From positions 18,357 to 82,356 of IMG/VR virus record IMGVR_UViG_2974717242_000001: DNA of 64,000 nt. The stretch is one strand, 5' to 3'. The notes under the pieces are model-generated. The model saw only the letters and a program-made list of their open reading frames with translations. It had not been told where the DNA came from and searched no databases. This stretch comes from Bongovirus reindeer (Duplodnaviria; Heunggongvirae; Uroviricota; Caudoviricetes; Vilmaviridae). The position numbers were made by a program, and so were the translations under genes. Shown here piece after piece: positions 19,539-62,334 of this stretch; position 1 is the first letter of the stretch; every line of letters begins with the position of its first letter.

Positions 19539-19621
19539 GGAAATGAGCTTCGCATCCGCGTGGAAGTGATTACAGGAGAATGTTTTCCGCGATCCAGTAA
19601 CTGTAGTTGGTACCAAATACG

Positions 19622-19636
19622 TTAGGTAGTACCTAA
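19622..19636. promoter_or_regulatory. 15-bp palindrome TTAGGTAGTACCTAA (operator-like) at divergent promoter region
   Basis: Perfect 7-bp half sites. Adjacent second palindrome TTGGTACCAA at 19607-19616. Confidence 0.3.
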
Positions 19637-20103
19637 TTTCAGAATGGGTATCTCTTTAGAGAAGGAAGTATCTAATAAAATCCCACCACGTCCCCCGGCT
19701 GGGGGACGCTGCTCACGTACCGTAGGGGGTAGTCGCAACACATCCGTGTTGCTCCGGTCGCGCTCACTGCGTTCGCACTGTCCTTTTATGACCTTAGCGG
19801 GGCTCTGACCTGCGATTACAGGAAGCCGCGCACGCGACCTGCGGTTTTGCACGACTCGGCAAGCTGCAACCAGGAAAACTCTCAGAAAATTCTCAGAATC
19901 AAGCTGGGAGTTTGTGGGATTACAGGGAGCCGCTACACTAGACTCTGCGTGGGCTCGCGAGAGGTTGGTATTCCCTTCCCCCTCAGCGAGCGCGGCACCG
20001 AAGCTCACGACTGGCCAGGTGCCCCTCCCCTGGGGGTCGTGTCCCAGGGGAGCCCAAGTCGATCTCCTGTAATCACCCTGAGCCCATTGCCACACTATGT
20101 GGC

Positions 20104-20476: not shown

Positions 20477-20698
20477 ATGCTGGAGTTGCTGTGGGAGATG
20501 GACAACGAGCTGAGAAGCTGGCATGCCAGTGGCACGTGGAAAAGTGGGCAAACCGGCGACCAACTCGCTGCCATCTACAAAAAGATGGACCAACGCCACA
20601 TACTTGCACAGGAGTTGCGGGAGATTGGGTGTGCCCCATGGGATTTCCATCCCCGCCGCGATAACAGCTGGCTAGTCGGCCCCAGAAGTAGGGCCTGA
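20477..20698 (+). CDS. hypothetical protein
   Basis: 73 aa from internal ATG of track ORF 20354-20698. The upstream part overlaps the previous gene. Confidence 0.4.
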   Translation: MLELLWEMDNELRSWHASGTWKSGQTGDQLAAIYKKMDQRHILAQELREIGCAPWDFHPRRDNSWLVGPRSRA

Positions 20699-20714
20699 CC
20701 AGCGATTACAGAAC

Positions 20715-20734
20715 CGTTGTACCTTGGTACAACG
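20715..20734. promoter_or_regulatory. 20-bp perfect palindrome CGTTGTACC-TT-GGTACAACG abutting start codon
   Basis: 9-bp inverted repeat immediately 5' of ATG 20735 and 3' of a stoperator-like site. Confidence 0.4.
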
Positions 20735-26230: not shown

Positions 26231-26633
26231 AAAACGCTGCAGGGCAATTGTTCTCGAACGATGCGGAGGGTTGTGTGAGAGGTGTGGACGCGGTGGACCC
26301 GTCACCATGCACCACCGGAAGAAACGAGGACAAGGTGGGCCCTGGGAACCCTGGAACATCGTCGCGCTGTGCGGACATGGAACAACTGGCTGCCATGGCT
26401 GGGTGGAAGCTAACCCCCTGGCAGCTCACGCTACTGGCTGGCATGTTCGACCGTGGGAAGACCCACGTGACATCCGCCCCGTCCCAATATGGGAGACGGG
26501 GCTTCGAGGCGGATCTGGTGATCCTGGACGAGGCTCTGACCAGCAAGAACGCTTCCTGTATTCACCCTCCGAGGCGTCTTATTCTGAGTACGTCGAAGTG
26601 AGCGATCACTGGTTTGACATTGACCCCGAATGA
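26223..26633 (+). CDS. HNH endonuclease
   Basis: CERCG ... MHHRKKRGQGGPWEPWNIVALCGHGTTGCHGW is a Cys-His HNH box. 136 aa. Confidence 0.6.
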   Translation: MNEKRCRAIVLERCGGLCERCGRGGPVTMHHRKKRGQGGPWEPWNIVALCGHGTTGCHGWVEANPLAAHATGWHVRPWEDPRDIRPVPIWETGLRGGSGDPGRGSDQQERFLYSPSEASYSEYVEVSDHWFDIDPE

Positions 26634-29446: not shown

Positions 29447-29875
29447 TTGCTAGAAGTGGGCCGTAGCCGTAAGTCTGCAAAGGCGGCAGGTGCATCGTTT
29501 GAGCGCCTGATCGCGGACGGACTCCGAGAAGCACTGGGCGACAACAATATTCAGCGCGCACCACGCTGGGGAAGTGTCGACAAGGGTGACATCGTGAACG
29601 TCCGCATCGACGGCCACGATCTAGTTATACAGACTAAGGACGTTGCTCGTCTCGACCTTCCAAAGGGCGTGGGAGACGCTAAGCTACAAGCCGTGAATGC
29701 AGGGGCTCTCGCGGGCCTGTTCATTCACAAACGCAAAGGGACCACCGACCCAATGAAGCAATGGGTTAGCTGTACTGTTGCGGAGCTAGTTGCACTGATC
29801 ACCAAGGTTCCGGTACACGCCGGGGCTGTGGAAGGGAATGAAGGGAGGGCGGATGACCGCCACTCTGGAGAATGA
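29447..29875 (+). CDS. Holliday junction resolvase, archaeal Hjc-type PD-(D/E)XK
   Basis: N-terminus KSAKAAGASFERLIADGL ... RAPRWGSVDKGDIVNV parallels Hjc KGSAVERxxV ... RAPASG ... D. RBS GGGGAG. Confidence 0.5.
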   Translation: MLEVGRSRKSAKAAGASFERLIADGLREALGDNNIQRAPRWGSVDKGDIVNVRIDGHDLVIQTKDVARLDLPKGVGDAKLQAVNAGALAGLFIHKRKGTTDPMKQWVSCTVAELVALITKVPVHAGAVEGNEGRADDRHSGE

Positions 29876-30479
29876 CACCGACTTCGACTGGCGCACCCGT
29901 TCGGTGTGCTTGACCGAGGACTTCGACATGACGTTCGTGGACGTTGATGACCTGATCGACCAGGGCGTCGAACGCGAAGACGCCATCGACATCATCAAGC
30001 AGCACGAGGTTGCCGCGAAGTCTGTCTGCGAGCGCTGCCCGGTCGTCAAGCAGTGCCTGAGCCAGGCCATGGAAGATGACGAGCAGTTCGGCGTGTGGGG
30101 CGGCAAGAACCCGGCCGAACGCCACCAGGAGCGTCACATCTGGCTGCAGATCCGTGGAATCCCCTCCCTGCCCACCGACTTGGGGCTGGTGACCGATCCG
30201 GATGCGCTCAGCTCGAACGCCGCCGCGAACGCCAAGCTGACCCGGCGCAACGAGCGGGCCCGCATCGCACGCGACCTTCTGCTGCTGCAGCCAGCGGACT
30301 GGACCAACACCACCCGGTCCAACGGCACCCACACCCGTGAGCAGTACCTCACGGTGATGGACATGATCCTGGCGAATCCGTCGCAGCCAGCGGAGGTCAT
30401 CGCCAACCGGATCGGCCGTCGCGGCGAGTACATCAACTCGATGCTCCGTGAGGTCTGCAAGGCGTTCGAAATCAACTAG
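29853..30479 (+). CDS. WhiB-family protein with C-terminal extension
   Basis: Strong RBS GAAGGGAGGG. Cys pattern C-x31-CERCPVVKQC plus hallmark GVWGG turn. 208 aa. Confidence 0.65.
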   Translation: MTATLENDTDFDWRTRSVCLTEDFDMTFVDVDDLIDQGVEREDAIDIIKQHEVAAKSVCERCPVVKQCLSQAMEDDEQFGVWGGKNPAERHQERHIWLQIRGIPSLPTDLGLVTDPDALSSNAAANAKLTRRNERARIARDLLLLQPADWTNTTRSNGTHTREQYLTVMDMILANPSQPAEVIANRIGRRGEYINSMLREVCKAFEIN

Positions 30480-30574: not shown

Positions 30575-30739
30575 GAGGGTGCCACGAGTTGAGCCTCGCT
30601 CCTCTGGTACCCCCGTGGATGATTTCTGTGACGCCGTCCGACGCGCCTGCCCACGGGGGTTCTGCTTTTTCTGAGCCTGTCTGACCTGGGAAAAGCTTCC
30701 TGTAATCACCCTTTTTCGCGCCGTACCGTAATAGGCGAT

Positions 30740-32567: not shown

Positions 32568-32675
32568 CCGAGTACTACGTGCGCACAGAAGGCCGAGTCG
32601 CCGTCCCCGGCCTGGAAACCTAGCTTCCTGTAATCACTCACAGGGGCCACATACGTTGAGAGACATGGAGAAACG

Positions 32676-37776: not shown

Positions 37777-37929
37777 ATTCTCCTGTAATCACTCTCGATG
37801 AAGCTTTAATCTATTTCATGTCCGGTTCAAGAAGGACCGGATGCGGTACACCGGAGGGGCTGGTTCCCAAATTCCAAGCCCGGTTCCTCCACTGGGACTC
37901 GACAGAGTTGAGGCTGAAGAGTCCCACGT

Positions 37930-40016: not shown

Positions 40017-40090
40017 CAGTCTGAGGTGTAAGTGGTTTGCATGGCCGGTTTGGATCCGGGCGGTTCGAGGTTCGAGTCCTCGCAGACTGA
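40017..40090 (+). tRNA. tRNA-Pro(TGG)
   Basis: Perfect acceptor CAGTCTG/CAGACTG (C1 start), anticodon loop TTTGGAT, perfect T-arm CGAGGTTCGAGTCCTCG. Confidence 0.5.
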
Positions 40091-40244
40091 CGTACCCGTT
40101 GGTGGATCGGATAACCACCCGACCTGATCTCAGGTTCCGTTAAGCAAATGAGATCGTGCCCCGTCGCCGTGGGATATGTCAGAAAAATCACGGGATCCCA
40201 TTGACCCGAGGGATTACGGCCTGATCAGCCGATAGGGTCAACCT

Positions 40245-43590: not shown

Positions 43591-43712
43591 ATGCCCTGAC
43601 CTGCGAATACAGGACGGGCACATACTTCTTGCCGTGAGTCCGATTGTGTTCCTCATCATCGTCGCGTTGGTGGGGCTCTCGCTCGCAATTCTTTGTCACT
43701 AGAAGGGATTTC

Positions 43713-46847: not shown

Positions 46848-46990
46848 CGTGTTGGTGTCGGGCATGTCGCCCTGATGTGTGGTGGATGGTCGTCTGTCGC
46901 CGGTGTGGTTCGAAGAACTGCCCAGCTGCAGGCGACCATCGCCTTTCATGCCGTCTACCTGCGATTACAGAACGATGGGAGGCTTCCGCC

Positions 46991-51531: not shown

Positions 51532-52890
51532 CTGCTGGATGATGGCCCGCTTGCGGTCCAGCGGCAGCTCCACCCAGACAGCCTCGATGTTGTCGTGACT
51601 CAGCAGCCCGTCGTACACCCGTGACTTGGTGAGGCGGGCTAGCTGCGTTTCGATCTGCTCAAGCTTGGTGTCGACCTTGTTGGTGGCTTCCTTCACCTGC
51701 GCCGGGGTGAGGGTGCCATCAGCGAGGGCGTCGGTGAAGGAAAGCTTGCGCATCCGCAGCGTCTCAGCCTCAGCGTGGAGCGCTTTGGCTTTTTCCGCGT
51801 CAGCCTGGGTGCCGACCACCCACTTCCGCTCTTCAAGCTTGGCGACAACCATGGCCTCGACATACTTGTCGACCTTGTGACGCATCCGTGTGACGCCATG
51901 GTGGCAGACGCCGAAGTTCCTGCACCGGTAAACCCGCCCGCCTGTGGCGTTGCTGCTGGCAGCCATCTTGAAGCCACAGTTACCGCAGCGCGCAATGCCT
52001 GAGAGCAGCGTTACGCGCACCCGTGGGCCGGTCGGGCCCTTGTTTTTGCGGTCAAGGATCGCTGAGACCGCTTCCCACGTCTCAACGTCCACGATGGGTT
52101 CCCAGTCACCTTTGCCGATGATCTCGCCCCTGAAGCTGTACAGGCCAGCGTATCGGGGGCTTCTGAGGATCTTGGCTACAGCGGTGTCGATGAAGACGTT
52201 TCCTCGCGGTGTCTTGAGCCCTAGCTCGTTCCACTTCTTCGCGATTGAGTACACCGTGCCACCGGCGAGGATGTCGTCGTAGGCTTCGCGGATCGCGGCG
52301 GCTTCTTCCGGCACGACGTGACGCTTCTTGGCCTGCTTGTCGTAGGTGTAGCCGAACGCGGGTGCGCCCAATGGTCGCCCGCTGGTGGCGATCTGTTCGT
52401 ATGCGCGCATCTGTCTGGCTGTCCTGACTTCACCTTCGTTCTCGGCAACTGCTGCCAAGATTTTAGCTGTCATGCGTCCCGCGTCGGTGGTGAGATCGAT
52501 CAGACCTGTTTGGCAGGTCTCGATGGGGATGCGTTTGCCGTTGCGGTTCACCCCCTCAATGAGGTCGATGAGGGGCAGAAGGTCGCGCATTTTGCGGTAC
52601 AGCCGGTCTGAGCGCCACGTGATGATGGCGTCGAGCAGGCCTTCGCGGATGTCGGCGCACATCTCTTCGTACGATTCGCGGCGCACGTTTTCCTTGACAG
52701 CACTGCGGTCGTTGTCGATGTAGAGGACTGGTTCCCAGCCGAGGCGTTCGCACAGGGCGACGCAGTCCTCTCGTTGCCGCTCGATGCCCAGCTCCTTGTC
52801 GGTGGACATGCGGAGGTAGATGGCAGCTCTCAGCCGGGGCGGTGCTTCGTGCCTTGGCGGACTTTCGAGGGTTGCTGTCATGGGTGTCAT
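51421..52890 (-). CDS. int: large serine recombinase (integrase)
   Basis: N-terminal resolvase domain AAIYLRMSTDKE with catalytic Ser, ~490 aa with recombinase and Cys-rich zinc domains. Start chosen at MTPMTATLES with AAGGAG RBS. Confidence 0.85.
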   Translation of the reverse strand: MTPMTATLESPPRHEAPPRLRAAIYLRMSTDKELGIERQREDCVALCERLGWEPVLYIDNDRSAVKENVRRESYEEMCADIREGLLDAIITWRSDRLYRKMRDLLPLIDLIEGVNRNGKRIPIETCQTGLIDLTTDAGRMTAKILAAVAENEGEVRTARQMRAYEQIATSGRPLGAPAFGYTYDKQAKKRHVVPEEAAAIREAYDDILAGGTVYSIAKKWNELGLKTPRGNVFIDTAVAKILRSPRYAGLYSFRGEIIGKGDWEPIVDVETWEAVSAILDRKNKGPTGPRVRVTLLSGIARCGNCGFKMAASSNATGGRVYRCRNFGVCHHGVTRMRHKVDKYVEAMVVAKLEERKWVVGTQADAEKAKALHAEAETLRMRKLSFTDALADGTLTPAQVKEATNKVDTKLEQIETQLARLTKSRVYDGLLSHDNIEAVWVELPLDRKRAIIQQLCDKIVVRHVGVTGRAASKLPLGHNIDIHWHNPSDN

Positions 52891-52961
52891 TCTACGATAT
52901 AACTCCTTGTGATTAAAGGGCACTCAAACTAGTTAGTTAGAAAAACTATGTATCTGGATAT
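52891..52961. other. AT-rich region immediately 5' of integrase: candidate attP
   Basis: Local GC far below the genome average. Canonical position of attP for serine integrases. Core not determinable from sequence alone. Confidence 0.35.
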
Positions 52962-53015
52962 AAAAAAGGGGAGGCCGGATGCAGCCCCTCGTCTGCACCC
53001 GGCCTCCCTCTTCTT
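52962..53015. terminator. bidirectional intrinsic terminator
   Basis: A6 - GGGGAGGCCGG / CCGGCCTCCC - T-rich. 10-bp GC stem. Confidence 0.65.
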
Positions 53016-53465: not shown

Positions 53466-53986
53466 GCAGCCACCTCACCCTTGAGGGCCTTCACCTGCGC
53501 CTTGGGCTTTGCTGGTGCCCGCTTGCGTGCGGGGCGCACAGCTGCCGCAGCTTCCCTTCGTGCCCGCTTGCCGATGGTCAGAGCGAGCAGCGCGATGGTG
53601 GAGAACGCCACGGACAGGTCCACGACGAGTGGCCACAGCCAGGCCACCCACACGCTCATGCCGCCTTGCTGCACTGCCAGCTCGAACAGTGACACGAAGG
53701 ACAGCACCAGGGCCACGACCGCGATTGCTGCGGTGAGGCCGAGGGCCACCCTGAAGAACATGCCGTCGATTTGGGTGCGGACCATGAGACTGAGCCCGTG
53801 TGTGGCGAGAGCCAGTACGACGGGCGGCACGAGGGCCATGCATGCCGCCACCCACGCGTTGTTGTTGTGGCTGTTGAACAGTGCGTGGGCGACGTTGCCG
53901 ACGATAGAGACGACGCTGGATCCGATGAGCCAGCGCCAGTAGAACGTGACTGCTTCTTTCTTGTACGCCGCGAGTGTGGTGGACAA
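53462..53986 (-). CDS. integral membrane protein (4-5 TM)
   Basis: 174 aa, multiple hydrophobic helices, basic C-terminal tail. TTG start after GAAGGGAA. Confidence 0.55.
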   Translation of the reverse strand: MSTTLAAYKKEAVTFYWRWLIGSSVVSIVGNVAHALFNSHNNNAWVAACMALVPPVVLALATHGLSLMVRTQIDGMFFRVALGLTAAIAVVALVLSFVSLFELAVQQGGMSVWVAWLWPLVVDLSVAFSTIALLALTIGKRARREAAAAVRPARKRAPAKPKAQVKALKGEVAA

Positions 53987-54012
53987 TGTGTGTTATTCCC
54001 TTCTGTCGTGTT

Positions 54013-54243
54013 TTAGATGGTCAGGTACTGCGTGATGTGGGGGACGCGCTCAATGGCTGCTGTCGCAGCCATGTAGTTGCCCTCGGCGCACTTCTTGGCC
54101 GCCGTGCGGATGAGCGACACAGCCATCTCGAGTTTGTGGATGTGGTCGATGGCCTCGATGTGCGACGAAACCAACTCTCGCTCAACAACAGTCAGCAGCG
54201 GAGCGTTGTCCTGAATGGTGAGCAGTTCCCGCTTGGTGATCAC
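54013..54243 (-). CDS. hypothetical protein
   Basis: GTG start after AAGAAGGGAA, 76 aa. Confidence 0.5.
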   Translation of the reverse strand: MITKRELLTIQDNAPLLTVVERELVSSHIEAIDHIHKLEMAVSLIRTAAKKCAEGNYMAATAAIERVPHITQYLTI

Positions 54244-54347
54244 AGATTGGTTCCCTTCTTGACCGGACGGAATGCCTCGTAACCGATGTAGGCGAGGTAG
54301 ATGCCCCAGATGGCCAGCGCTAGGAACTGGCCGAGTGTGAGCTGCAT
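54240..54347 (-). CDS. tiny membrane peptide (35 aa)
   Basis: RBS GAGAAGGGAAAAC-ATG. MQLTLGQFLALAIWGIYLAYIGYEAFRPVKKGTNL. GTGA overlap with downstream gene. Confidence 0.4.
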   Translation of the reverse strand: MQLTLGQFLALAIWGIYLAYIGYEAFRPVKKGTNL

Positions 54348-54430
54348 GTTTTCCCTTCTCGTGAATTTGCCGTGAATGTAGGCCTGTCCTGTATTTGCAG
54401 GTCAGCCCATGTTTTGGCCCAGAAAGCCAG

Positions 54431-54460
54431 AAGGCCCCCCGACATGAGCCGGGGGGCCTT
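54431..54460. terminator. intrinsic terminator hairpin
   Basis: AAGGCCCCCCG-acatgag-CGGGGGGCCTT. Perfect 11-bp stem. Confidence 0.6.
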
Positions 54461-54475
54461 CCTACCTACTGGGAA

Positions 54476-55000
54476 CTAGGTGGGGTTCTTCAGGTAATCG
54501 ATCCATTTGATGCAGCTGCGGCGCACCTTCTGCCGCATCTGCTCGGGGGTGCGCTTCAAGCAGTGACTACACATGCGGTAACCGCGTCCCTGTACCTCGC
54601 CGACAGTGAGCGCCGAGAGGTGAACGAGCGGCCGCACTGGTGTGCGCAGCGTGATGGTTCGGCAGAACGCCGTGGTGTGCACAGCGCCCGAGGGGACGCG
54701 GACGTACAGGTTGAACTCGCCGCCGCGCAGCCAGGCCCGTTCAGCATTGCTGAGCATGTCGGCTAGGCGTTGCCCTCGGGGCCTCATCGCGTCGGCACGC
54801 TCACGTTGCCCACGCTGCAGGTAGTTGGTGTACTGTTTGCGGAAATCGCGGATCTCATCGAAAAGCGCAATTAACTCCGATGCTACTTCTATCAACTCCT
54901 CTTCGCTCATGGTGTGTCGGACTTGTGCATGTGGCAACCACCCTCCCTTTTTGGCCGTTGCTAGCTTGAACCTGGGGGGTGATTTTACTTGTGCCGTCAT
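54476..55000 (-). CDS. hypothetical protein in isolated transcription unit
   Basis: 174 aa. RBS GAAGGGAA at start, terminator hairpins on both sides (54431-54460 and 55073-55106), stoperator-like site 54387-54405 just downstream. C-terminal CSHC. Confidence 0.55.
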   Translation of the reverse strand: MTAQVKSPPRFKLATAKKGGWLPHAQVRHTMSEEELIEVASELIALFDEIRDFRKQYTNYLQRGQRERADAMRPRGQRLADMLSNAERAWLRGGEFNLYVRVPSGAVHTTAFCRTITLRTPVRPLVHLSALTVGEVQGRGYRMCSHCLKRTPEQMRQKVRRSCIKWIDYLKNPT

Positions 55001-55072
55001 GATTCCCTTCGAGCCTTCCAGCAGGTCCGTGACTCCTGCCTAGACCGTTGTACGTTGCTAAACACAGCAGAA

Positions 55073-55106
55073 GGGCACCGGATCGGGCTGACCCGGTGCC
55101 CTTCCT
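55073..55106. terminator. intrinsic terminator hairpin
   Basis: AAGGGCACCGG ... CCGGTGCCCTT. Confidence 0.5.
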
Positions 55107-55112
55107 CCCTAT

Positions 55113-55361
55113 TCAGTGCACGTCGACCTGTTGATCGTGGTAGCCCATGCGGTGCAATAGTTCATCGACACTGCCCTGTAGGTTGCTGCGGGCGAATGTG
55201 GCGAAGTCGGCTCGGGCTTCGCTGGCGTTGTCAAGCCCGAAGTCAATGGCCCACGCAGCAAGGTCCATCCCCGTGATGGTGACGGTGAATGTGAGCTGGT
55301 CGTCATCGTTCACGTGGCAGACGTGTTCCTGCCCGCAGTGTGGGCATGTGGTCTTGGCCAT
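55113..55361 (-). CDS. small Cys/His-rich protein
   Basis: RBS GGAGGG. MAKTTCPHCGQEHVCH, 82 aa. Confidence 0.5.
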   Translation of the reverse strand: MAKTTCPHCGQEHVCHVNDDDQLTFTVTITGMDLAAWAIDFGLDNASEARADFATFARSNLQGSVDELLHRMGYHDQQVDVH

Positions 55362-55364
55362 GTG

Positions 55365-55598
55365 TCAGACCCTCCCGGCTCGCATGCTGCTGGCGACGAT
55401 GTCGAGCACGTCGTCCCGGCTGAGCCCCAGGTCGGCATTGAGCTGGTCAACCGTCTCCTCCGCCTCACCCAGGGTGCGGTGCAGGCCGAACACGGGGGTC
55501 CAGCCAGCCTCGTCCTCGACCACCTTGGCGATCTCGTACCCCTGCTGGGCTCGGTTGAAGTACGACTCGTTCGCGTAGTAGCACGTCCTCTTGTCCAT
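55365..55598 (-). CDS. hypothetical protein
   Basis: RBS GAGAAGGGGAAACC-ATG. Track ORF extended to 55643. Confidence 0.5.
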   Translation of the reverse strand: MDKRTCYYANESYFNRAQQGYEIAKVVEDEAGWTPVFGLHRTLGEAEETVDQLNADLGLSRDDVLDIVASSMRAGRV

Positions 55599-55676
55599 GG
55601 TTTCCCCTTCTCTTGTGTAGCTCTGAATTGAGCAGGGGCGCAACGGATCCAGTGACCCGTTGAACCCCCTCCCGAT

Positions 55677-55859
55677 TCAGCGAATTCTACTCACACATTC
55701 CGGTGGGTAGCCCATGCGCTTGAACTCCGCTTGCGCGGCCTCGAGGACGACGGTTTTGATGTCGTCCCGCGCCGACCGTGGACCTGCCAGGTTGTAGCTG
55801 TCCGCGTACTCCCACAGGTCGAGGTCGACGGCCAGGTTGACCACTACCCGGCCATGCAT
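55677..55859 (-). CDS. hypothetical protein
   Basis: 60 aa from ATG 55859. Confidence 0.4.
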   Translation of the reverse strand: MHGRVVVNLAVDLDLWEYADSYNLAGPRSARDDIKTVVLEAAQAEFKRMGYPPECVSRIR

Positions 55860-55864
55860 AGGCC

Positions 55865-56140
55865 TCACCGGCCCCGCTGAATGAGGATGGTGCCCGACTT
55901 CAGCCCGTCGACCAGCTCGGCCACCTTGAACCAGTGCTCAAAGGTGGCTGAGACGCGCACCCACTTGTCGCGGAAGTCGCCCGTGCCCCAGTGGGCGAAC
56001 CCTGGGCCCTGGCCCTCCGTGAAGGTGCGCAGCACACCGACGAACTCGGAGCCACCGCGTTCAATGTGGATGAGGTAACCCTTCTCGACGGCGTCCATCA
56101 GTTCACCCATGACCTTCACGTCTGCGAGCGTTGTGTCCAT
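55865..56140 (-). CDS. hypothetical protein
   Basis: RBS GAGAAGGGAATAGAGAT-ATG. Track ORF extended to 56212. Confidence 0.5.
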   Translation of the reverse strand: MDTTLADVKVMGELMDAVEKGYLIHIERGGSEFVGVLRTFTEGQGPGFAHWGTGDFRDKWVRVSATFEHWFKVAELVDGLKSGTILIQRGR

Positions 56141-56237
56141 ATCTCTATTCCCTTCTCGTGTGTTTGCAGCTGAATACAGCAGGGGCGCAGCAGATCTCGC
56201 GACCTGCTGCACCCCCTCCCCATTCAGTTGTCAGTGC

Positions 56238-56520
56238 TCACGCGCGTCCACGCGCATCCTCCTCGGCCTCATCAGCGGCCCGACCACTCGCGTAGTACGC
56301 CATCCAGTCGGTCAGGTCACGCACAAGATCCGGCACCTTCTGGGCGAGAATCTCGATGGGCTCGCCAACGTTCTGGGGCCTCCCGCGCTCGATGATTCGG
56401 CCATTGTCAGCCACACGCTCAACGGTGAGCGTGCGCTGAATGATCAGCCGGTCGAGTCGACCCCCGACCGTCCTCCTCTGGTTCCACGTTGTATGCGGTG
56501 ATCTTCCGGTCGAACGCCAT
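56238..56520 (-). pseudogene. frameshifted small gene (G5 homopolymer)
   Basis: ATG 56520 with canonical leader RBS. Frame stops after 33 aa. The +1 frame is open for 62 further protein-like aa. Removing one G from run 56461-56465 restores a 95-aa ORF. Confidence 0.4.
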
Positions 56521-56610
56521 GTTCTTCATTCCCTTCTGTCGTGTTGTGGTGCTGAGTACACCAAAGGGGGCACCGACCAATGCCGATGTCCCCGAGTTGC
56601 GCTCAGAACC

Positions 56611-56679
56611 CTAGAACTGTTTGAACAGCAGGATGATGGTCGCCAGCACTACAGCCAGTGACCAGTAAGCAGCCGTCAT
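56611..56679 (-). CDS. tiny hydrophobic peptide (22 aa)
   Basis: RBS GAAGGAGGG, ATGA overlap with upstream gene stop. MTAAYWSLAVVLATIILLFKQF. Confidence 0.3.
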   Translation of the reverse strand: MTAAYWSLAVVLATIILLFKQF

Positions 56680-57029
56680 ACAGCCCTCCTTCGTTCCCAG
56701 CCGCGCCGCGCCCACTGCGTTTGAGACCACTTGTTGCGCATGATGGTCTCGGCCATGCGTTGCAGCTGGCTCGGGTTCGCGTAGTACTCCTGAGAGTTCA
56801 ACGCGTCAGCGAGACCCGCGTGATAGCCACGGTTGTGGTCCACCACGTCGAACCCCATGCCGTCAGCCGTGAATGGGATGCCCTCCCAGTCCGGTGGCCA
56901 CATGATGACCGTCTCCCAGTAGTCGAACGACCCACCGAGGTACGCGGTGGACACTTGGACCACGCCGACCCCGTCAATGACGAAGCCTTGCATGACTTGA
57001 CGGTTCGGCCGAAACATGGTGTCACTCAT
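56676..57029 (-). CDS. hypothetical protein
   Basis: Start at MSDTMF with leader RBS. Track ORF extended to 57137. Confidence 0.5.
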   Translation of the reverse strand: MSDTMFRPNRQVMQGFVIDGVGVVQVSTAYLGGSFDYWETVIMWPPDWEGIPFTADGMGFDVVDHNRGYHAGLADALNSQEYYANPSQLQRMAETIMRNKWSQTQWARRGWERRRAV

Positions 57030-57126
57030 CAGTTTCTCTTCCCTTCTCGTGTTGGTGTCCGTCTGGCCACCAAGGAAAGGCACCACAGGTTGCCCTGTGA
57101 TGCCCTCCCCAAGCTGCCAGCCAGCT

Positions 57127-58200
57127 TTATGCCGCAACCAGCTGCGGCATGTCGAGCACCTCGCTCAGGGCCCGCAGCGTGGCCCCGTCGCTCGCCGCGA
57201 TGTCGTTGCGGATGGCACGGTCGTAGACACGTTCCAGCCGCGACGTTCCGCGCACCGAGCGTCCGTGATGCTCGTAGGTGTTGACCGCCTGCACGACACC
57301 GAAAGCGGTGCCCGCGAACGGTGCCGACATGGGATCCACCGTGTAATAGTGGTCGAGCGCCTCACGGCGATTCTCGGCCTTGGTGATCTTGGCCTTGCTG
57401 CTGTCGGCGGGTGCGGGCGGCTCGATGATGTCGAGCACCTTCAGCCACTGCTTGCGGCTCACCTCGATCTGTGCCAGCTCGCGGGTGAAGTCCTGCATCT
57501 CGTGCGCGGACTTGTCCAGGATCGACAGTGCCTCACGGACACCTGCCACCACCTGGGCCCCCATGCTGTTGACGGTGTGCTTGACCTTGTACTGACGGCC
57601 TGCCGCCTTGGCGTCACGCCGGATGACCTGAAACATGTTGTCGCAGATCAACATCCGATTGAACGCCGAATACGTCGTCGAGATCGAGCCGTCGAGCGAC
57701 GTTTGGGCGAGCAGGAACGGCCAAAACTTGAGGCCGGTCTTCTCGTCGTGCATGGTCTCGTCAAGACCGATCTCGACTGCCGCCTGTGCGCCGTTCTTCA
57801 GCGTCAGTGCGGACAGGATCGAAAGCCGGTCCTGCAGAATGTTGCTCACGTTCCGGATGAGCCACTCCTTGTAGTCGTGGATCCGGTAGGACTTCGTGTG
57901 CCGCCCCAACTCCGTGTAGTCATCGGAGCGCACAATTCCCTGTGCGCCCTCGGTGATGACCACACGGGCCGGTCGCCCATCGGGCAGGACAATCACACCC
58001 GGCTCGCCGAGCTGGTCGACGCCGACCGGGACGAAATTGCCCGTGGGCACACTGATGGCCTCCCAGTTGAACAGGCGGCGCTCCACCTCAGCGACAGGGA
58101 TGGGGCCCTCGTAGGTCGGCAGGGTGCCGTCCGTCTGGCCGATCCACCGGTCGCGCTTGGCGGTGTTGCCGATCAATGCGTGAGCGATCTTGGTTCCCAT
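57127..58200 (-). CDS. hypothetical protein (357 aa, largest gene of leftward block)
   Basis: Leader RBS CACGAAGAAGGGAAGAGAACTA-ATG. No recognisable catalytic motif. Confidence 0.6.
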   Translation of the reverse strand: MGTKIAHALIGNTAKRDRWIGQTDGTLPTYEGPIPVAEVERRLFNWEAISVPTGNFVPVGVDQLGEPGVIVLPDGRPARVVITEGAQGIVRSDDYTELGRHTKSYRIHDYKEWLIRNVSNILQDRLSILSALTLKNGAQAAVEIGLDETMHDEKTGLKFWPFLLAQTSLDGSISTTYSAFNRMLICDNMFQVIRRDAKAAGRQYKVKHTVNSMGAQVVAGVREALSILDKSAHEMQDFTRELAQIEVSRKQWLKVLDIIEPPAPADSSKAKITKAENRREALDHYYTVDPMSAPFAGTAFGVVQAVNTYEHHGRSVRGTSRLERVYDRAIRNDIAASDGATLRALSEVLDMPQLVAA

Positions 58201-58316
58201 TAGTTCTCTTCCCTTCTTCGTGTGTTACCCGTTTGTGTAACGGGCATCTGTACCGTCTGAGTACAGCAGAGCGCACAGGGTGATTACAGGGAACCAACCT
58301 GTGCGCTCCTCCCTAC

Positions 58317-58724
58317 TCAGATGTAGGCCTTACCATCCGGCGCGAGATCCACCAGGGCAGCGGTGTGCACAGGTGCACCCGTGTAGCCCAGCGTGAAAGT
58401 CCCTGCCTGATAAGGGTTATAGCGGGCTTGAGTGCCAGGCAGTACGTGAGTGATGCGCGGGTCATTGATGTCGACCAGCGTGCCCACCACACCCGCGTGC
58501 ACACTCTTGCGCCGCGTGCGGATCACCTTTTGGCGACCACCCTCGCGGACCACGAACTTGGCGTCAATGATCACTGCGCCTGTGGCGTGAGCAACCACCT
58601 TGCCTTTGTTTTCACCGTCCCGTGCCACGATGGACCACTGGTCACGGTGCAGGTTGCGGTATGCGAATACCGTTTGCCCGAACTCGATGCCCCGGCCCTG
58701 GTACGGCTCAATGGTGTAAGACAT
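58317..58724 (-). CDS. hypothetical protein
   Basis: Leader GGAGAAGGGAAAACATC-ATG, 135 aa. Confidence 0.55.
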   Translation of the reverse strand: MSYTIEPYQGRGIEFGQTVFAYRNLHRDQWSIVARDGENKGKVVAHATGAVIIDAKFVVREGGRQKVIRTRRKSVHAGVVGTLVDINDPRITHVLPGTQARYNPYQAGTFTLGYTGAPVHTAALVDLAPDGKAYI

Positions 58725-58822
58725 GATGTTTTCCCTTCTCCGTGTGTTGGTGCTGAGAACACCAGCAGGACAACAGGTCTGGCGAACTGTTGCCCTGAGT
58801 CGCTCTCAGTACGTGTGAACTG

Positions 58823-58950
58823 TCAGAGTTCACCGCCCTTGCGCAGCTTCTGACGGATGGCGCGGCGGTCGGCTCGCTTGAGCTTCTTGCGGTCACCCAA
58901 GCGACGCTCGCCGTGGACCCCGAGCATGCGGCCATGGTTGGAAACGTACA
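58823..58950 (-). CDS. small basic protein (42 aa)
   Basis: Leader AGAGAAGGGATTACAGAT-ATG. MYVSNHGRMLGVHGERRLGDRKKLKRADRRAIRQKLRKGGEL. Below track cutoff. Confidence 0.4.
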
Positions 58951-59045
58951 TATCTGTAATCCCTTCTCTGTGTGTGTATTTCACTGTCTACAGACAGCAG
59001 AGAGCCCACCGACCGTGTGGCCGATGGGCTCTCCTCCGTGTGTAG

Positions 59046-59291
59046 CTAGCTGAGCTTGAAGCTGAGCGTTTGAATCCGCGTGTAACCGCCACGCGACTGC
59101 ATGCGCGGTATCACAACGGTGTTCTCTGTGTACGTGGATTTGGAGTAGTCGCGGTATGTCAGCTCGACCTCGCGACCGGCTATCTGGCAGTCCTGTACCT
59201 CGACCACGCGGCCGTTGTGCACGATCCAGTCGCCTAATCCCAGATCAGACACGGGTGATTCAACCCAGTTGACAATCTTGATCTCAGCCAT
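59046..59291 (-). CDS. hypothetical protein
   Basis: Leader CAGAGAAGGGATAGAACC-ATG, 81 aa. Confidence 0.55.
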   Translation of the reverse strand: MAEIKIVNWVESPVSDLGLGDWIVHNGRVVEVQDCQIAGREVELTYRDYSKSTYTENTVVIPRMQSRGGYTRIQTLSFKLS

Positions 59292-59311
59292 GGTTCTATC
59301 CCTTCTCTGAG

Positions 59312-59464
59312 TCAGCGGAGCTGGCTGATTGCTGCCTTGACATCGCCCAAATCCCAGGCGATTTGTTCATACAGCGGCGTGCCGTCAGTTGCCCTGGCGA
59401 GCTGCCGCTCAAGGTCACTCTCCCACTGGTACAGCTCGCCCAGTGTCATTCCATCGACATGCAT
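59312..59464 (-). CDS. hypothetical protein
   Basis: Leader CACGGAGAAGGGAACAGAGCC-ATG. Track ORF extended to 59512. Confidence 0.45.
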   Translation of the reverse strand: MHVDGMTLGELYQWESDLERQLARATDGTPLYEQIAWDLGDVKAAISQLR

Positions 59465-59540
59465 GGCTCTGTTCCCTTCTCCGTGTGTTGGTCTGAGTTG
59501 ACCAGCGCACACACTGTCACCAGTGTGTGCCCCTACCGAC

Positions 59541-59762
59541 TCAGATCTGAGAAACGATCCTGTAGGTCACTTTCACATGACCATGTGCCATCGTGGCTGT
59601 GAACTCGCGGTCAGATTCGTGCCATTCCACGCGCCATCCACCGTCCGTGTACATCCGGGCAATCCGTGCCAAATTGCGTAGCGCGGCTGAAAGAGTCGAG
59701 ACCCACGGGCCCACCTCGTTACGGTCGGGCGTAGGGCCTTCTCTATCAATCCGGTATGCCAT
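59541..59762 (-). CDS. hypothetical protein
   Basis: Leader CACGGAGAAGGGATAGAGAA-ATG. Track ORF extended to 59840. Confidence 0.5.
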   Translation of the reverse strand: MAYRIDREGPTPDRNEVGPWVSTLSAALRNLARIARMYTDGGWRVEWHESDREFTATMAHGHVKVTYRIVSQI

Positions 59763-59845
59763 TTCTCTATCCCTTCTCCGTGTGTGTTTGCTGCCTAAGC
59801 AGACAAGCGGCAGCACTAGATGCCTAGTGCTGCCTCCCAATCGGC

Positions 59846-60568
59846 TTAGACGACCGCCAAGGGCAAGAAATTCTTGGCCCCAACGCCGTGTACCTCAATC
59901 GAGATCGATGCCTTGCGGCCATTGCCATTGCCGCCGCACTGCATGCACGTGATGCACTGCACCGTGTTGTTTTTGCCCGCCGTGGCAGGGCACTGCACCA
60001 AACCCTTGGGTTTGGGTGCACCCTGCGGACGGACAACAAACCCGCGCCATCCCGCGCGGCGCGCCGCCCGGTAATCCTCGAGCGTGTCGCACGATGCCAT
60101 GCAGAACTCTGCAAGACCCGTGTCGCAAGCACGCCATTGGTGCGTGTAGCCAAGGACACCGTCGGCGATGCTGGCAATGGTTGCCCAGATGTGCGTAGGC
60201 ACCGCTCCAGGGTCGCCGTAGGCACCAAACCGCACCTTGCGACCAATGAACGCGTCAGCGTCGAACGGACGGACATTGCCACGCTTGAATGCGCCCCACA
60301 CCGCATTGGGTGTACGCATGTTGACGTAGCAAGACCGCTTGCGACCATTCGCACGGTCGCCTCGATGAACGCAACCACCGCACACGGCAGCATCGCTACC
60401 GTCCGCAATGGCATCGCTCGGCTTGACATCCGCACGAAGGATCCACGTTTGCACCACGTCGCCGGTCTTGACGTTTGCGGACTTGAATGAAGCCAGCACC
60501 ACAATCGGAGTGACCCCATCGAGAGCCGATACGCCCTGCCAGACAACCATGGTCTGATCTTTCGACAT
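59846..60568 (-). CDS. hypothetical Cys-rich protein (240 aa)
   Basis: Leader CACGGAGAAGGGAAAAGGGAAC-ATG. Multiple CxxC motifs (CGGC, CPATAGKNNTVQCITCMQCGG). Confidence 0.55.
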   Translation of the reverse strand: MSKDQTMVVWQGVSALDGVTPIVVLASFKSANVKTGDVVQTWILRADVKPSDAIADGSDAAVCGGCVHRGDRANGRKRSCYVNMRTPNAVWGAFKRGNVRPFDADAFIGRKVRFGAYGDPGAVPTHIWATIASIADGVLGYTHQWRACDTGLAEFCMASCDTLEDYRAARRAGWRGFVVRPQGAPKPKGLVQCPATAGKNNTVQCITCMQCGGNGNGRKASISIEVHGVGAKNFLPLAVV

Positions 60569-60660
60569 GTTCCCTTTTCCCTTCTCCGTGTGTGTGCCGC
60601 CTGAGAGCAGCAGAAAGCACACCTACCGAGCGGTAGATGTGCTTTCCTCCGTGCTCAGGA

Positions 60661-60885
60661 CTAGGCGCTTGCCAACATGGCGCGTTCTTTCACCTTGCCC
60701 ACCCAACCCGCGTGGCCGATAGCAGCCAGCGTGGGGGAGCTGTAGTGCTCCCATTGTGTTTCTTGACCAGGCCAAAACACGCAAGTCTCGTAGTAGCCAA
60801 ACTGCGCGATATGGACGGTAGAAACATGCACGCGGACACCATTAACTTTGATTTTGTCGCTGGCGACCACCTTGGGGTTACGCAT
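60661..60885 (-). CDS. hypothetical protein
   Basis: Leader CACGGAGAAGGGAAAACATC-ATG. Track ORF extended to 60936. Confidence 0.5.
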   Translation of the reverse strand: MRNPKVVASDKIKVNGVRVHVSTVHIAQFGYYETCVFWPGQETQWEHYSSPTLAAIGHAGWVGKVKERAMLASA

Positions 60886-60964
60886 GATGTTTTCCCTTCT
60901 CCGTGTGTTGTGGTCTGAGTTGACCAGCGCATGCACTGAAAACTCAGCGCATGCCCCTACCTAC

Positions 60965-61246
60965 TCAGCCCATTGCCGCAAGTTCCGCTAGTGACCCTGT
61001 GTCTCGCACCGCAATTCGCTTGCCGGTCTCGAGAAGGATGTTTCCGCAATCCTCAGCGCACGCGTAGCCAGCATTTTCGGCTTCTCGTGTCTGAAGAACC
61101 CAAATGTCCAGATGTGGCAAACGTTCTTTGATAGCGCCAGCTTTCGCCATCGCGCTATGCCAATCGGTTGCCAAGTCCTGGGCACGCTTGAAGTGATTAG
61201 CGCGCCGATTGCGGTAGGCAATCGTCCAATAGGTTGCGTCTCTCAT
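60965..61246 (-). CDS. hypothetical protein
   Basis: Leader CACGGAGAAGGGAACCACC-ATG, 93 aa. Confidence 0.55.
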   Translation of the reverse strand: MRDATYWTIAYRNRRANHFKRAQDLATDWHSAMAKAGAIKERLPHLDIWVLQTREAENAGYACAEDCGNILLETGKRIAVRDTGSLAELAAMG

Positions 61247-61340
61247 GGTGGTTCCCTTCTCCGTGTGTACCGCTGCTAGATACAGCAGAGACTACTTAGC
61301 TCTGCTATATAACCGGCAGAGTAAGTAATCTCCTCCCCAT

Positions 61341-61598
61341 CTAGTCGCCGTTAATGCGCTTGTCCCAGATATTGAATGACTCCATTGCCGCCCGACGTGC
61401 CTCAGATTCTGCGACTTCGGGCCGGTCGCGGAAGTACTTGCGACCATCTGTCATGAGTGCTGGGCCAGCGTCGCCGATCATGTAGACAGCCCACCGATAC
61501 GTATCCGCGTGGACGCCGTGACCTTGCGTGCTGTAGGGCAGGACTGTTGCGTAAACGTTGCCGTTGCGCAGGATCTCGCCCTCTACTGCATTCGTCAT
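61341..61598 (-). CDS. hypothetical protein
   Basis: Leader CACGGAGAAGGGATAGAACC-ATG. Track ORF extended to 61667. Confidence 0.5.
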   Translation of the reverse strand: MTNAVEGEILRNGNVYATVLPYSTQGHGVHADTYRWAVYMIGDAGPALMTDGRKYFRDRPEVAESEARRAAMESFNIWDKRINGD

Positions 61599-61677
61599 GG
61601 TTCTATCCCTTCTCCGTGTGTGGTCTGAATTGACCAGGGCATGCACTGACCATTTGCCAGCGCACACCCCTACCTAT

Positions 61678-61905
61678 TCAGTCCTGCGCATAGACCCGGT
61701 AAAGCGTTCGGATCTCGCCATCCTTGATTGACGCTGTGAGCACATAGCCGGTGATCTCGGTAGACCATCCGCCTGCCTCGTAGGTATCGGCTATCAGCCG
61801 CAGCTGACGCATTGCGCCATGCTCGGAGAGATTCCGGTAGACCGTTCTGCCGTCAATCGCAAACTCGCTACCGTCCTGCTTATGGTGCGTGATCTCAAAT
61901 AGCAT
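61678..61905 (-). CDS. hypothetical protein
   Basis: Leader CACGGAGAAGGGAACACGC-ATG, 75 aa. Confidence 0.55.
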   Translation of the reverse strand: MLFEITHHKQDGSEFAIDGRTVYRNLSEHGAMRQLRLIADTYEAGGWSTEITGYVLTASIKDGEIRTLYRVYAQD

Positions 61906-61990
61906 GCGTGTTCCCTTCTCCGTGTGTGTGTCCTGCTAGGCAGCAGGTAGCCACACATAGACCTCGAGGCCTATGTGTGACTGTCCGTGC

Positions 61991-62212
61991 CTAGTCGACT
62001 GTCTCCAGAACGTCGGCAGTGCCAATCTCAATCGAGCCGCACGCCGCGCAACCCCAGTAGCCGCCGAGATCGACCGTGCCAGCGCTTGCCAGCAATCCAG
62101 CCGACTCGACAAACGCCGAGATACACGCCAGCTCAGATTCATCATCAAAAGCCGAGTAGTCGGCGTTGACGATGGCCGTTGCACACGTGTGGCAGACGTT
62201 GAAAACCTTCAT
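61991..62212 (-). CDS. small Cys-rich protein (first gene of leftward operon)
   Basis: RBS GAAGGGAAG. CHTC ... CAAC pairs. 73 aa. Confidence 0.5.
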   Translation of the reverse strand: MKVFNVCHTCATAIVNADYSAFDDESELACISAFVESAGLLASAGTVDLGGYWGCAACGSIEIGTADVLETVD

Positions 62213-62292
62213 TGATTCTTCCCTTCAGTGCAGGTGGGACCATGCGCCCTCACTCTTCAGACGACCGGTACCAGACCGGTCGCCAGAAGAAT

Positions 62293-62334
62293 GGCCTGAA
62301 GCGACGTTAATCGAGATTAATTCCGCTTCAGGCC
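62293..62334. other. strong hairpin upstream of leftward operon
   Basis: 11-bp perfect stem GGCCTGAAGCG / CGCTTCAGGCC enclosing palindromic loop TTAATCGAGATTAA. Confidence 0.4.

Follow-up and report, generated by a model that had tools for sequence, protein, structure and literature searches.

In phiC31, a temperate phage of Streptomyces, many near-identical early promoters are accompanied by multi-copy inverted-repeat operators, to which isoforms of the c-gene repressor bind. In mycobacterial promoters, an ANNNT -10 element precedes the start of transcription by 6–8 nucleotides (nt), and many mRNAs are leaderless. Phages of cluster A, including L5 with its repressor gp71, carry stoperators, asymmetric sites of 13–14 bp that occur in 24–35 copies in short intergenic gaps, and one L5 operator overlaps the -35 of an early promoter (Brown et al. 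1997; PMC6550527). Cluster M phages were described in the announcement of Estes and Aziz (PMC7953290, which cites Pope et al. 2014, J Virol 88:2461) as sharing four intergenic conserved repeats, CR1–CR4, 'characteristic of cluster M phages'; CR3 and CR4 were placed in the rightmost region, between genes and with stem-loops before them, and the announcement names the four repeats without sequences. The present analysis concerns a short repeated motif with the core GATTACAGG in Bongovirus reindeer, and particularly a 565-bp intergenic gap at positions 19539–20103 of a 64,000-nt stretch (the window) of the IMG/VR record IMGVR_UViG_2974717242_000001. An original prediction, made from the letters of the window, had described this gap as a divergent control region with three stoperator-like sites, a 15-bp palindrome and a GC hairpin, and as the most likely site of the early promoters and of immunity control.

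Window coordinates equal record coordinates minus 18356, and the window reaches the right genome end. Over a 2-kb stretch around the gap, the identity was 100% to phage Reindeer (cluster M, NC_053516.1), ~84% to PegLeg and Bongo of cluster M1 and ~73%–75% to the Rey-like phages (M2). For comparison, three complete genomes were assembled, those of Reindeer, PegLeg and MrMagoo. Three cluster M-like relatives from outside the isolated phage collection, all syntenic with cluster M at this locus, were also compared: the Logan contig L035, found via a homologue of gp74 (39% identical), and, found via gp54 homologues, the Logan contig L037 and the prophage L036 of Mycobacterium sp. AZCC_0083 (JACHGP010000019.1). 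The gap was exactly the interval between the annotated starts of gp51 (19538, minus strand) and gp52 (20104, plus strand), in agreement with the predicted divergence of a leftward and a rightward block, and the palindromes, the hairpin and the motif copies listed for it were all present when read directly. The leftward block begins with gp51, and gp52 is the first gene of a rightward block that comprises genes for Erf, an exonuclease, SSB, DnaB and WhiB-like proteins and a 19-tRNA array. None of the 29 GenBank records that contain this DNA had features annotated in the gap. Between Reindeer and MrMagoo, the gap DNA was 70% identical, compared with 54%–61% for the flanking genes gp51, gp52 and gp53. 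Open reading frames within the gap (54 amino acids, plus strand; 157 amino acids, minus; 86 amino acids, plus) were rejected as genes, since indels of lengths not divisible by three break them among relatives.

Eight exact copies of the core GATTACAGG were counted in the window, where 0.16 would be expected, and none of 100 shuffles reached eight, which confirms that the repeated copies are real. All eight exact cores of Reindeer were intergenic, and the genomes of Reindeer, PegLeg and MrMagoo each carried 8–10 exact cores at syntenic intergenic sites. The motif, with a consensus of approximately TCCTGTAATCAC(C), is asymmetric, spans 13–14 bp and lies in short intergenic regions. Its copies fell into two classes. 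Read toward the downstream gene, class A has the form (T)CCTGTAATCAC(C) with the core CCTGTAATC, and a -10-like hexamer follows 16 nt on (17 nt in a few copies), as in TACCGT, TACGTT, TAATCT, TAGAGT, TAAAGT, GAAGCT and CACACT. Read likewise toward its gene, class B has the form CTGACCTGC-GATTACAGGA, in which a near-consensus -35 is joined to the inverted core and the -10 (e.g., TACCTT, CATACT, GAGGCT, TACATT) follows after 6 nt. An nAnnnT hexamer was found at +16/+17 (class A) or, with the core inverted, at +6 (class B) for seven of the eight exact Reindeer cores, where the background per position is 0.037 for nAnnnT and about 0.002 for TAnnnT. The same distance from motif to -10 was observed at the syntenic sites of PegLeg and MrMagoo.

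When some five degenerate copies were included, the window contained 13 motif sites, four in the gap and nine elsewhere, and 12 of the 13 had a -10 hexamer at the fixed offset. This coupling places the sites inside promoters rather than within transcription units; judged by its position, the motif is a promoter-embedded element and not a stoperator inside operons. With the -10 hexamer set at -12 to -7, class A cores would cover approximately -37 to -29, and class B cores approximately -27 to -18. At gp51, gp52 and gp122, as well as at the leftmost operon of PegLeg and MrMagoo, the start codon lies 6–7 nt past the -10, and this spacing implies leaderless mRNAs. Leaderless sigma A promoters of mycobacteria have the same TANNNT/ANNNT -10 with an ATG or GTG 6–7 nt on; ordinary host promoters of this kind, however, lack the additional conserved element of 13–19 bp seen in Reindeer. 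By-eye comparison with ECF-type (extracytoplasmic function; GGAAC...GTT) and SigF-type promoters led to the rejection of both, as the downstream element is not conserved.

Like the stoperators of cluster A, the motif is an asymmetric 13–14-bp repeat present in multiple copies in short intergenic gaps, presumably bound by one phage regulator, and class A sites would lie over the -35 region as the L5 operator does. In contrast to cluster A, Reindeer carries only ~13 copies, nearly all of them inside promoters and in two orientations, and none was found in the 30-kb late structural operon. Of five traits of cluster A stoperators, the asymmetric intergenic repeat was thus observed, while the other four (orientation, promoter independence, copy number and spread, and a gp71-type repressor) were not; as for orientation, class A reads CCTGTAATC and class B GATTACAGG, both with transcription. 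The label 'stoperator-like' was not supported: the copies lie in both orientations to transcription, 12 of 13 are coupled to a -10, and the gap holds four copies and not three. The early promoter family is like that of phiC31, but the Reindeer site is asymmetric and fused to the promoter. In the T4 MotA box and the WhiB7 system (AT-hook, sigma A region 4), a conserved box likewise stands at or by a weak -35 at a fixed distance from the -10, whereas the Reindeer box is also found inverted inside the spacer, and binding by a WhiB-like protein (gp74, see below) is only putative.

The motif also shares with the published cluster M repeats its short length and its synteny in Bongo-like, PegLeg, Rey-like and Reindeer genomes, with the central copies present in nine phages. 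Right-arm repeats of the form ACACACGGAGAAGGGA are, by their placement, probably CR3 and CR4. Given this fit, the GATTACAGG classes A and B, for which the consensus strings TCCTGTAATCACC and CTGACCTGCGATTACAGGA serve for comparison with CR1 and CR2, most probably correspond to those two repeats. The core string GATTACAGG was not found in the phage literature searched. The feature most probably belongs to an already known class of cluster M repeats, and its novelty is accordingly low.

Within the gap, four conserved -10 hexamers stood at the fixed motif offsets. Together with the leaderless geometry of gp51 and gp52, this supports, at the level of sequence, the view of the gap as the site of the early promoters. 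The three motif copies originally listed for it, from 19805 with the core at 19814–19822, from 19916 with the core at 19918–19926, and at 20066–20074 on the minus strand, were present, but a fourth, at 19566–19579, had been missed. The latter belongs to the predicted promoter P_gp51 (class A; 19546–19579, minus strand), in which the motif GTGATTACAGGAGA (19566–19579) contains the core CCTGTAATC from 19576 to 19568 and is followed by a 16-nt spacer, the -10 GAAGCT from 19551 to 19546 and, 7 nt on, the ATG of gp51 (19538), a leaderless geometry. The core, the nAAGCT hexamer and the ATG were invariant in both alignments (A2, A7). At the other end of the gap, P_gp52 (class A; 20063–20096, plus strand) consists of the motif TCTCCTGTAATCAC (20063–20076), a 16-nt spacer and the -10 CACACT (20091–20096), and the GTG of gp52 (20104) again lies 7 nt past the -10; this leaderless arrangement was also conserved in both alignments. 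The two outer motifs, GTGATTACAGGAGA and TCTCCTGTAATCAC, are perfect 14-bp inverted partners.

Two further promoters are predicted between them. P_Lint (19791–19825, minus strand) has the core CCTGTAATC from 19822 to 19814, a 17-nt spacer and the -10 TAAGGT from 19796 to 19791, and the nine cluster M phages, as well as L036 and L037, all have a TAnnnT/nAnnnT hexamer at 16–17 nt. On the plus strand, this copy shows a class B flank, CTGACCTGCGATTACAGGAAG (19805–19825), with no -10 after it. P_Rint (class B; 19918–19939, plus strand) has the core GATTACAGGG (19918–19927), 6 nt and the -10 TACACT (19934–19939), which fits TAnnnT in all 11 genomes. The variable spacer between these inner promoters (19836–19895) contains a conserved GACCTGCGGTTTT (19836–19848) and the tandem 11-mers GAAAACTCTCA and GAAAATTCTCA (19874–19895). 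The sequence of all four -10 hexamers varied, while TAnnnT/nAnnnT was kept in the nine cluster M phages and the two distant relatives.

The inner promoters face conserved segments with signs of RNA structure. Candidate RNA-L (19680–19784, minus strand; ~105 nt) extends from P_Lint to the GC hairpin and begins with a 5' block, AAAGGACAGUGCGAACGCAGUGAGCGC, that was the best conserved non-coding stretch; its internal hairpin GCAACAC/GUGUUGC showed compensatory changes. In RNAalifold, the minus strand of this segment reached -36.8 kcal/mol with a structure conservation index (SCI) of 0.82, and the plus strand -28.7 kcal/mol with an SCI of 0.70. The GC hairpin was found as predicted, as CGTCCCCC-GGCT-GGGGGACG at 19689–19708, with an 8-bp stem and a 4-nt loop. 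On the minus strand, the T-run ATTTTATT follows from 19681 to 19674, and the two together span 19674–19708. Its stem was invariant across cluster M, with a variable loop, and the pairing was largely kept in the distant relatives. The MrMagoo homologue, in which the T-run lies 3 nt past the stem, was called as a minus-strand intrinsic terminator, and no T-run was present on the plus strand. The hairpin and T-run are thus a probable intrinsic terminator of a leftward transcript, the candidate RNA-L.

Candidate RNA-R (19946–20055, plus strand; ~110 nt) might be a structured RNA or a long gp52 leader. Its terminal hairpin (20025–20034/20043–20052), upstream of P_gp52, has an invariant loop, GGUCGUGU (also given as GGTCGTGT), with compensatory changes in four of ten stem pairs and 97.5% of cells paired. 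The RNAalifold consensus was -51.8 kcal/mol, and the SCI (0.87 for plus vs 0.80 for minus) weakly favoured the plus strand. Single-sequence folding of RNA-L and RNA-R gave z-scores of about -2. In an eight-sequence alignment that included L036 and L037, 94% of cells of the three hairpins were paired, compared with 85% in shuffles, and eight pairs had changed on both sides; the covariation score was 0.30 compared with 0.13 in shuffles, none of 500 of which reached the observed value, and 0.05–0.10 in slid controls. The indels among relatives are not multiples of three, and thus neither block is protein-coding. A scan of Rfam 15 found no family, with a single match at chance level (E = 0.17; 21 bits against a gathering score of 80).

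The sites were also traced in the more distant relatives. L036 kept the core CCTGTAATC at P_gp51, P_Lint and P_gp52 and at the class B site of gp54, and in L037 the core was CCTGTAAAC in all three central copies. L035 did not have the cluster M motif; instead, CCCGGTAGA(C) stood at five class A positions. At the positions of gp75, gp80, the tRNA array and SSB, it was followed after 16–17 nt by TATTCT, TACCGT, TAGATT or TACCAT, and a further CCCGGTAGA copy lay upstream of the gp52 homologue. At the gp54 position of L035, an inverted GTCTACCGGA was followed by 6 nt and TAGGCT. The geometry was therefore kept while the core diverged by lineage, which argues for a phage-encoded, sequence-specific protein and against a host sigma factor. 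A scan of IMG/VR with the class B 16-mer recovered cluster M genomes only, plus chance matches, one of which (L033) was dismissed as unrelated tail-fibre DNA.

We read the gap as the central control region from which the early genes of a temperate cluster M phage are transcribed divergently, with four promoters that carry the built-in operator of a multi-promoter immunity regulon, and we see about as much reason to believe this reading as to doubt it. According to this proposal, the gap would hold four promoters of the host RNA polymerase type, each with a short asymmetric protein-binding site. P_gp51 and P_gp52, with an identical 14-bp site over the -35, would start the leaderless mRNAs of the leftward and rightward early operons, whereas P_Lint and P_Rint would fire apart into the conserved, structured, non-coding segments of ~110 nt, the leftward of which would end at the GC hairpin. 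The same site would recur in about nine further early and middle promoters, in two geometries, either over the -35 or inverted in the spacer, and a single phage-encoded DNA-binding protein would occupy all of these sites and block RNA polymerase. The site occurs in either orientation and, at both of its positions, overlaps contacts of RNA polymerase, which points to a repressor rather than an activator, and the regulator that binds the motif would most likely be the phage immunity repressor. Promoter firing, binding of a protein to the motif, repression and the existence of both RNAs are what we infer from these patterns. Such a system would resemble an operator-in-promoter immunity regulon, comparable to the L5 operator at Pleft and the early promoters of phiC31, and the suggestion that the gap is a site of immunity control is plausible. 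The subclusters of cluster M are reportedly homoimmune, which fits the invariance of the core across M1 and M2.

Several observations weigh against this proposal. A strict sigma-70 scan of the gap found no promoter, and the analysis relied for this reason on motif-anchored geometry. The -35-like hexamers at 16–19 nt are weak, matching TTGACA at four of six positions in class B (CTGACC) and three of six in class A (CTGTAA), and the -10 hexamers of P_gp51 and P_gp52 (GAAGCT and CACACT) lack the first T. The core of P_Rint was exact in Reindeer only and degenerate in all relatives. One of the motif copies, upstream of gp147, has TGTACT in place of a -10 and was the sole copy that did not look like part of a promoter. 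The T-run of the GC hairpin in Reindeer begins 9 nt past the stem and was not called as a terminator. The concerted core change in L037 might stem from gene conversion among the copies instead of co-evolution with a protein, and conservation of the sites would be expected for an activator just as much. Finally, no helix-turn-helix (HTH) repressor was found in 93 Reindeer proteins (20 chosen proteins scanned against Pfam and 73 more against Pfam, PHROGs and NCBIfam), which yielded only WhiB domains; the remark in the original prediction that the repressor gene cannot be recognised by motif was thus borne out.

Other candidate binders were also considered. Searches of the Protein Data Bank (PDB) with the sequences of gp51 and gp52 gave no match, and both proteins, only 32%–40% identical in amino acids to those of MrMagoo, are too divergent to recognise an invariant site. 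Ranking of the proteins by conservation put forward gp54, gp82, gp92, gp122 and gp70, none with a DNA-binding signature. The product of gp139 (54476–55000, minus strand) was not favoured either, having no domain match and only 44% identity to its MrMagoo homologue compared with an invariant site. As a separate observation, gp139 stands alone with a terminator-like hairpin on either side and encodes a CxxC motif, and an in-frame ATG 90 nt upstream of the annotated start, with a GAAGGGAATC signal, would extend the product to 174 amino acids instead of 144.

The WhiB-like gp74 (29853–30479, plus strand) leads to the alternative that survives best, namely that the motif is an activator site at which a phage protein, with gp74 as the best candidate, sits on sigma A region 4 and directs the host RNA polymerase. 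This alternative is unlikely in our estimation, although not negligible. WhiB proteins dock on sigma A region 4, and class A sites lie where such docking would occur, so that gp74 could sit at these sites as an activator; in addition, the -35 hexamers of class A promoters are poor, and gp74 is located immediately upstream of the promoter of gp75. A WhiB domain was found in gp74 (Pfam, 6.8e-17; PDB matches to structures of WhiB1, WhiB3 and WhiB7). The C-terminal extension of 110 amino acids was better conserved than the WhiB part, including AEVIANRIGRRGEYINSMLRE, and was modelled as a three-helix unit with a predicted local distance difference test (pLDDT) score of 76–85. In a fold search with this model, the short matches were all HTH domains, including DNA-bound sigma A region 4, but none was significant (E above 0.2); the extension looks HTH-like, but the lack of significance counts against the alternative. 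Only six gp74 homologues were found among 5.8 billion proteins, all from cluster M-like phages, and L035 differs both in the putative recognition helix and in the DNA core. Across subclusters, however, gp74 identity is only 61%–64%, in contrast to the invariant core. A near-consensus -35 (CTGACC) is already present in class B promoters, and activation from two positions and in both orientations would be unusual. Furthermore, gp74 lies ~10 kb inside an operon driven by the same promoters, so that the first round of transcription must be independent of it. For these reasons (both orientations, two positions overlapping RNA polymerase and the depth of gp74 in the operon), activation by gp74 was ranked below repression.

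We consider it improbable that the motif represents duplicated strong promoters that are read by the host holoenzyme, with sigma A or an alternative sigma factor, and are kept alike by recombination. The fixed distance to the -10 and the correct placement of the -35-like CTGTAA or CTGACC would suit this explanation, and mycobacterial promoters often need little beyond a -10. Nevertheless, conservation over 13–19 bp goes far above that of a -35 hexamer, and the 9–10-mer is inverted in the class B spacer, whereas sigma elements are orientation-specific. The variation of the core among CCTGTAATC, CCTGTAAAC and CCCGGTAGA at constant geometry, in related phages of mycobacteria, is also difficult to reconcile with a host sigma factor, which would fix the core.

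The lack of a recognisable protein repressor in cluster M raises the thought that the switch may rest on something unusual: one of the candidate RNAs, RNA-L or RNA-R, might act in immunity or early control, or the WhiB-HTH fusion gp74 might reprogramme sigma A onto the motif. We hold this to be a long shot. Between the two RNAs, RNA-R would be the stronger candidate, as most relatives no longer have the operator core at P_Rint, and it could act by termination or antisense pairing in the manner of P4, P1 and N15. A search for complementary targets of RNA-L and RNA-R gave only chance-level matches of 10–13 nt, with the exception of a GAAGGGA tract: the invariant UAUUCCCUUCCCCCU tract of RNA-R could pair with the GAAGGGA start-associated repeats of ~20 right-arm genes. 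The tract GGTATTCCCTTCCCCCTC (19966–19983, plus strand), likewise invariant, complements the GAAGGGA(A)TA core of these repeats over 8–10 contiguous nt, e.g., upstream of gp143 and gp136. This match could reflect pairing of an anti-Shine-Dalgarno-like kind, or purine and pyrimidine tracts might merely coincide.

An AT-rich island (19602–19681) has 32.5% GC, which makes it the second lowest 80-mer in a genome of 82 kb and 60.3% GC, and contains the palindromes TTGGTACCAA (19607–19616) and TTAGGTAGTACCTAA (19622–19636). The significance of the palindromes is doubtful. Across the whole window, perfect palindromes whose arms reach 7 nt or more numbered 11, with 10.5 expected; the presence of one of them in the gap had a P of about 0.07, and three palindromes with arms of at least 5 nt in the gap compared with 1.1 expected (P about 0.11). 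With counts at chance level, only conservation speaks for the palindromes. TTGGTACCAA was invariant in nine of nine cluster M phages, whereas the symmetry of the 15-mer TTAGGTAGTACCTAA was lost in MrMagoo, Estes, Aziz and two more distant relatives; the 15-bp palindrome, which had been singled out in the original prediction, is therefore neither statistically unusual nor conserved as a palindrome. The possibility of a multi-copy operator was also dropped, as neither palindrome was enriched or had further copies in three cluster M genomes. The island itself may harbour an upstream regulator site, or the phage Lsr2-like protein may nucleate there.

A broader explanation, which we find very doubtful, would make the island, the GC hairpins and the 11-mers parts of a replication origin or of a nucleation site for the Lsr2-like silencer gp3. 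The phage does encode the Lsr2-like gp3, with a DnaB-like helicase and SSB encoded downstream of the gap, the island is exceptionally AT-rich with its invariant TTGGTACCAA, and the covariation of the hairpins is equally compatible with DNA cruciforms. Against this stand the want of any iteron array beyond the two 11-mers, the lack of palindrome enrichment and the loss of the palindromes in L036. The asymmetry of wobble pairs and the alifold energies favour a single-stranded RNA of defined strand, and copies of the motif outside the gap would be left unaccounted for. Least probable of all, and barely credible, are true stoperators that halt elongating RNA polymerase in one orientation as in cluster A: the uniform orientation of class A copies to the downstream gene and the gp147 copy, which lies inside the leftward operon without a -10, would agree with them, as would the form and placement of the motif, but the fixed -10 offset, the opposite orientation of class B copies to transcription, the small copy number and late-operon absence, and the failure to find an L5 gp71-like repressor all speak against them.

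If the motif is the operator of an immunity regulon, it would offer a handle on the choice between lysis and lysogeny in cluster M phages, which are temperate, carry at least 20 tRNA genes and have no identifiable repressor. The analysis provides four predicted transcription starts at about 19538 and 19784 on the minus strand and about 19946 and 20104 on the plus strand, a candidate 14-bp operator as bait for the regulator and two candidate small RNAs; a core mutant could be, for example, GATTACAGG changed to GATGCCAGG. The natural site variants CCTGTAATC, CCTGTAAAC and CCCGGTAGA could be paired with a co-varying protein, and possible uses include regulated expression cassettes for mycobacteria and engineered lytic derivatives. 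The discovery is nonetheless incremental, in that the region behaves as expected of a phage early control region.

Outside the gap, nine sites are distributed over early and middle genes, seven of them, described first, on the plus strand. The predicted gp54 promoter (class B; 20694–20725) consists of CTGACCAGCGATTACAGAA, 6 nt and TACCTT. A near-perfect 16-bp palindrome, TTGTACCTTGGTACAA (20717–20732), overlaps the -10 and the start of this promoter; it shares the GGTAC/GTACC half-site with both gap palindromes and was partly conserved in PegLeg and MrMagoo. The site upstream of SSB (class A; 26555–26585) has one mismatch (CCTGTATTC), followed by 16 nt and TATTCT, and is syntenic in PegLeg and MrMagoo. 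Class A sites were also found at the gp75 promoter (30699–30729; -10 TACCGT), directly downstream of gp74, at the promoter of the DnaQ-like gp80 (32627–32657; -10 TACGTT) and at the entry of the tRNA array (37782–37812; -10 TAATCT), where a terminator-like GC stem and T-run come before the promoter. Class B sites followed after the tRNA array (43595–43626; CTGACCTGCGAATACAGGA, 6 nt, CATACT) and at gp122 (46953–46984; GATTACAGAA, 6 nt, GAGGCT), the latter with an ATG 6 nt on in leaderless geometry.

On the minus strand, a degenerate class B site (CTGACCTGCAAATACAGGA, 6 nt, TACATT) forms the putative gp138 promoter (54375–54405), just past a terminator hairpin; the core at this position was exact in PegLeg and MrMagoo. 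The copy upstream of gp147 (58257–58320) has its core from 58290 to 58282. A long hairpin separates gp148 from gp147 here, with the copy in its 18-nt loop, and this location together with the lack of a -10 indicates that not every copy is a promoter. The hairpin is two-tiered, with the stems CTGAGTA/TACTCAG and GAGCGCACAGG/CCTGTGCGCTC, and its inner stem was changed in a compensatory manner in MrMagoo (GGACCACACAG/CTGTGTGGTCC). Gene 149 of PegLeg has an annotated start that overlaps the motif and was therefore probably placed too far upstream.

The right-arm repeat ACACACGGAGAAGGGA, or (A)CACACGGAGAAGGGA, was observed 5–12 nt before the ATG of ~20 leftward genes (53900–62300, minus strand), often with a stem-loop upstream; examples, in plus-strand coordinates, are 58731–58749, 59472–59490, 60577–60595 and 61911–61929. 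This placement suggests a dedicated translation-initiation signal.

The lowest-GC 80-mer of the genome (30%) was located at 52888–52967, at the upstream end of the integrase gene gp133. On its minus strand, a class A-like site with one mismatch, CCTTTAATC, is followed by 16 nt and TAGAAT. An AAGGAG and then in-frame ATGs lie downstream of the annotated GTG of gp133, and the start of this gene may accordingly be annotated too far upstream; the phage attachment site attP may lie at 52888–52967. The tRNA-Pro(tgg) at 40017–40091 (58373–58447 of the record) was entered twice in the GenBank record, as genes 98 and 99 with ends 1 nt apart, which is an annotation duplicate.

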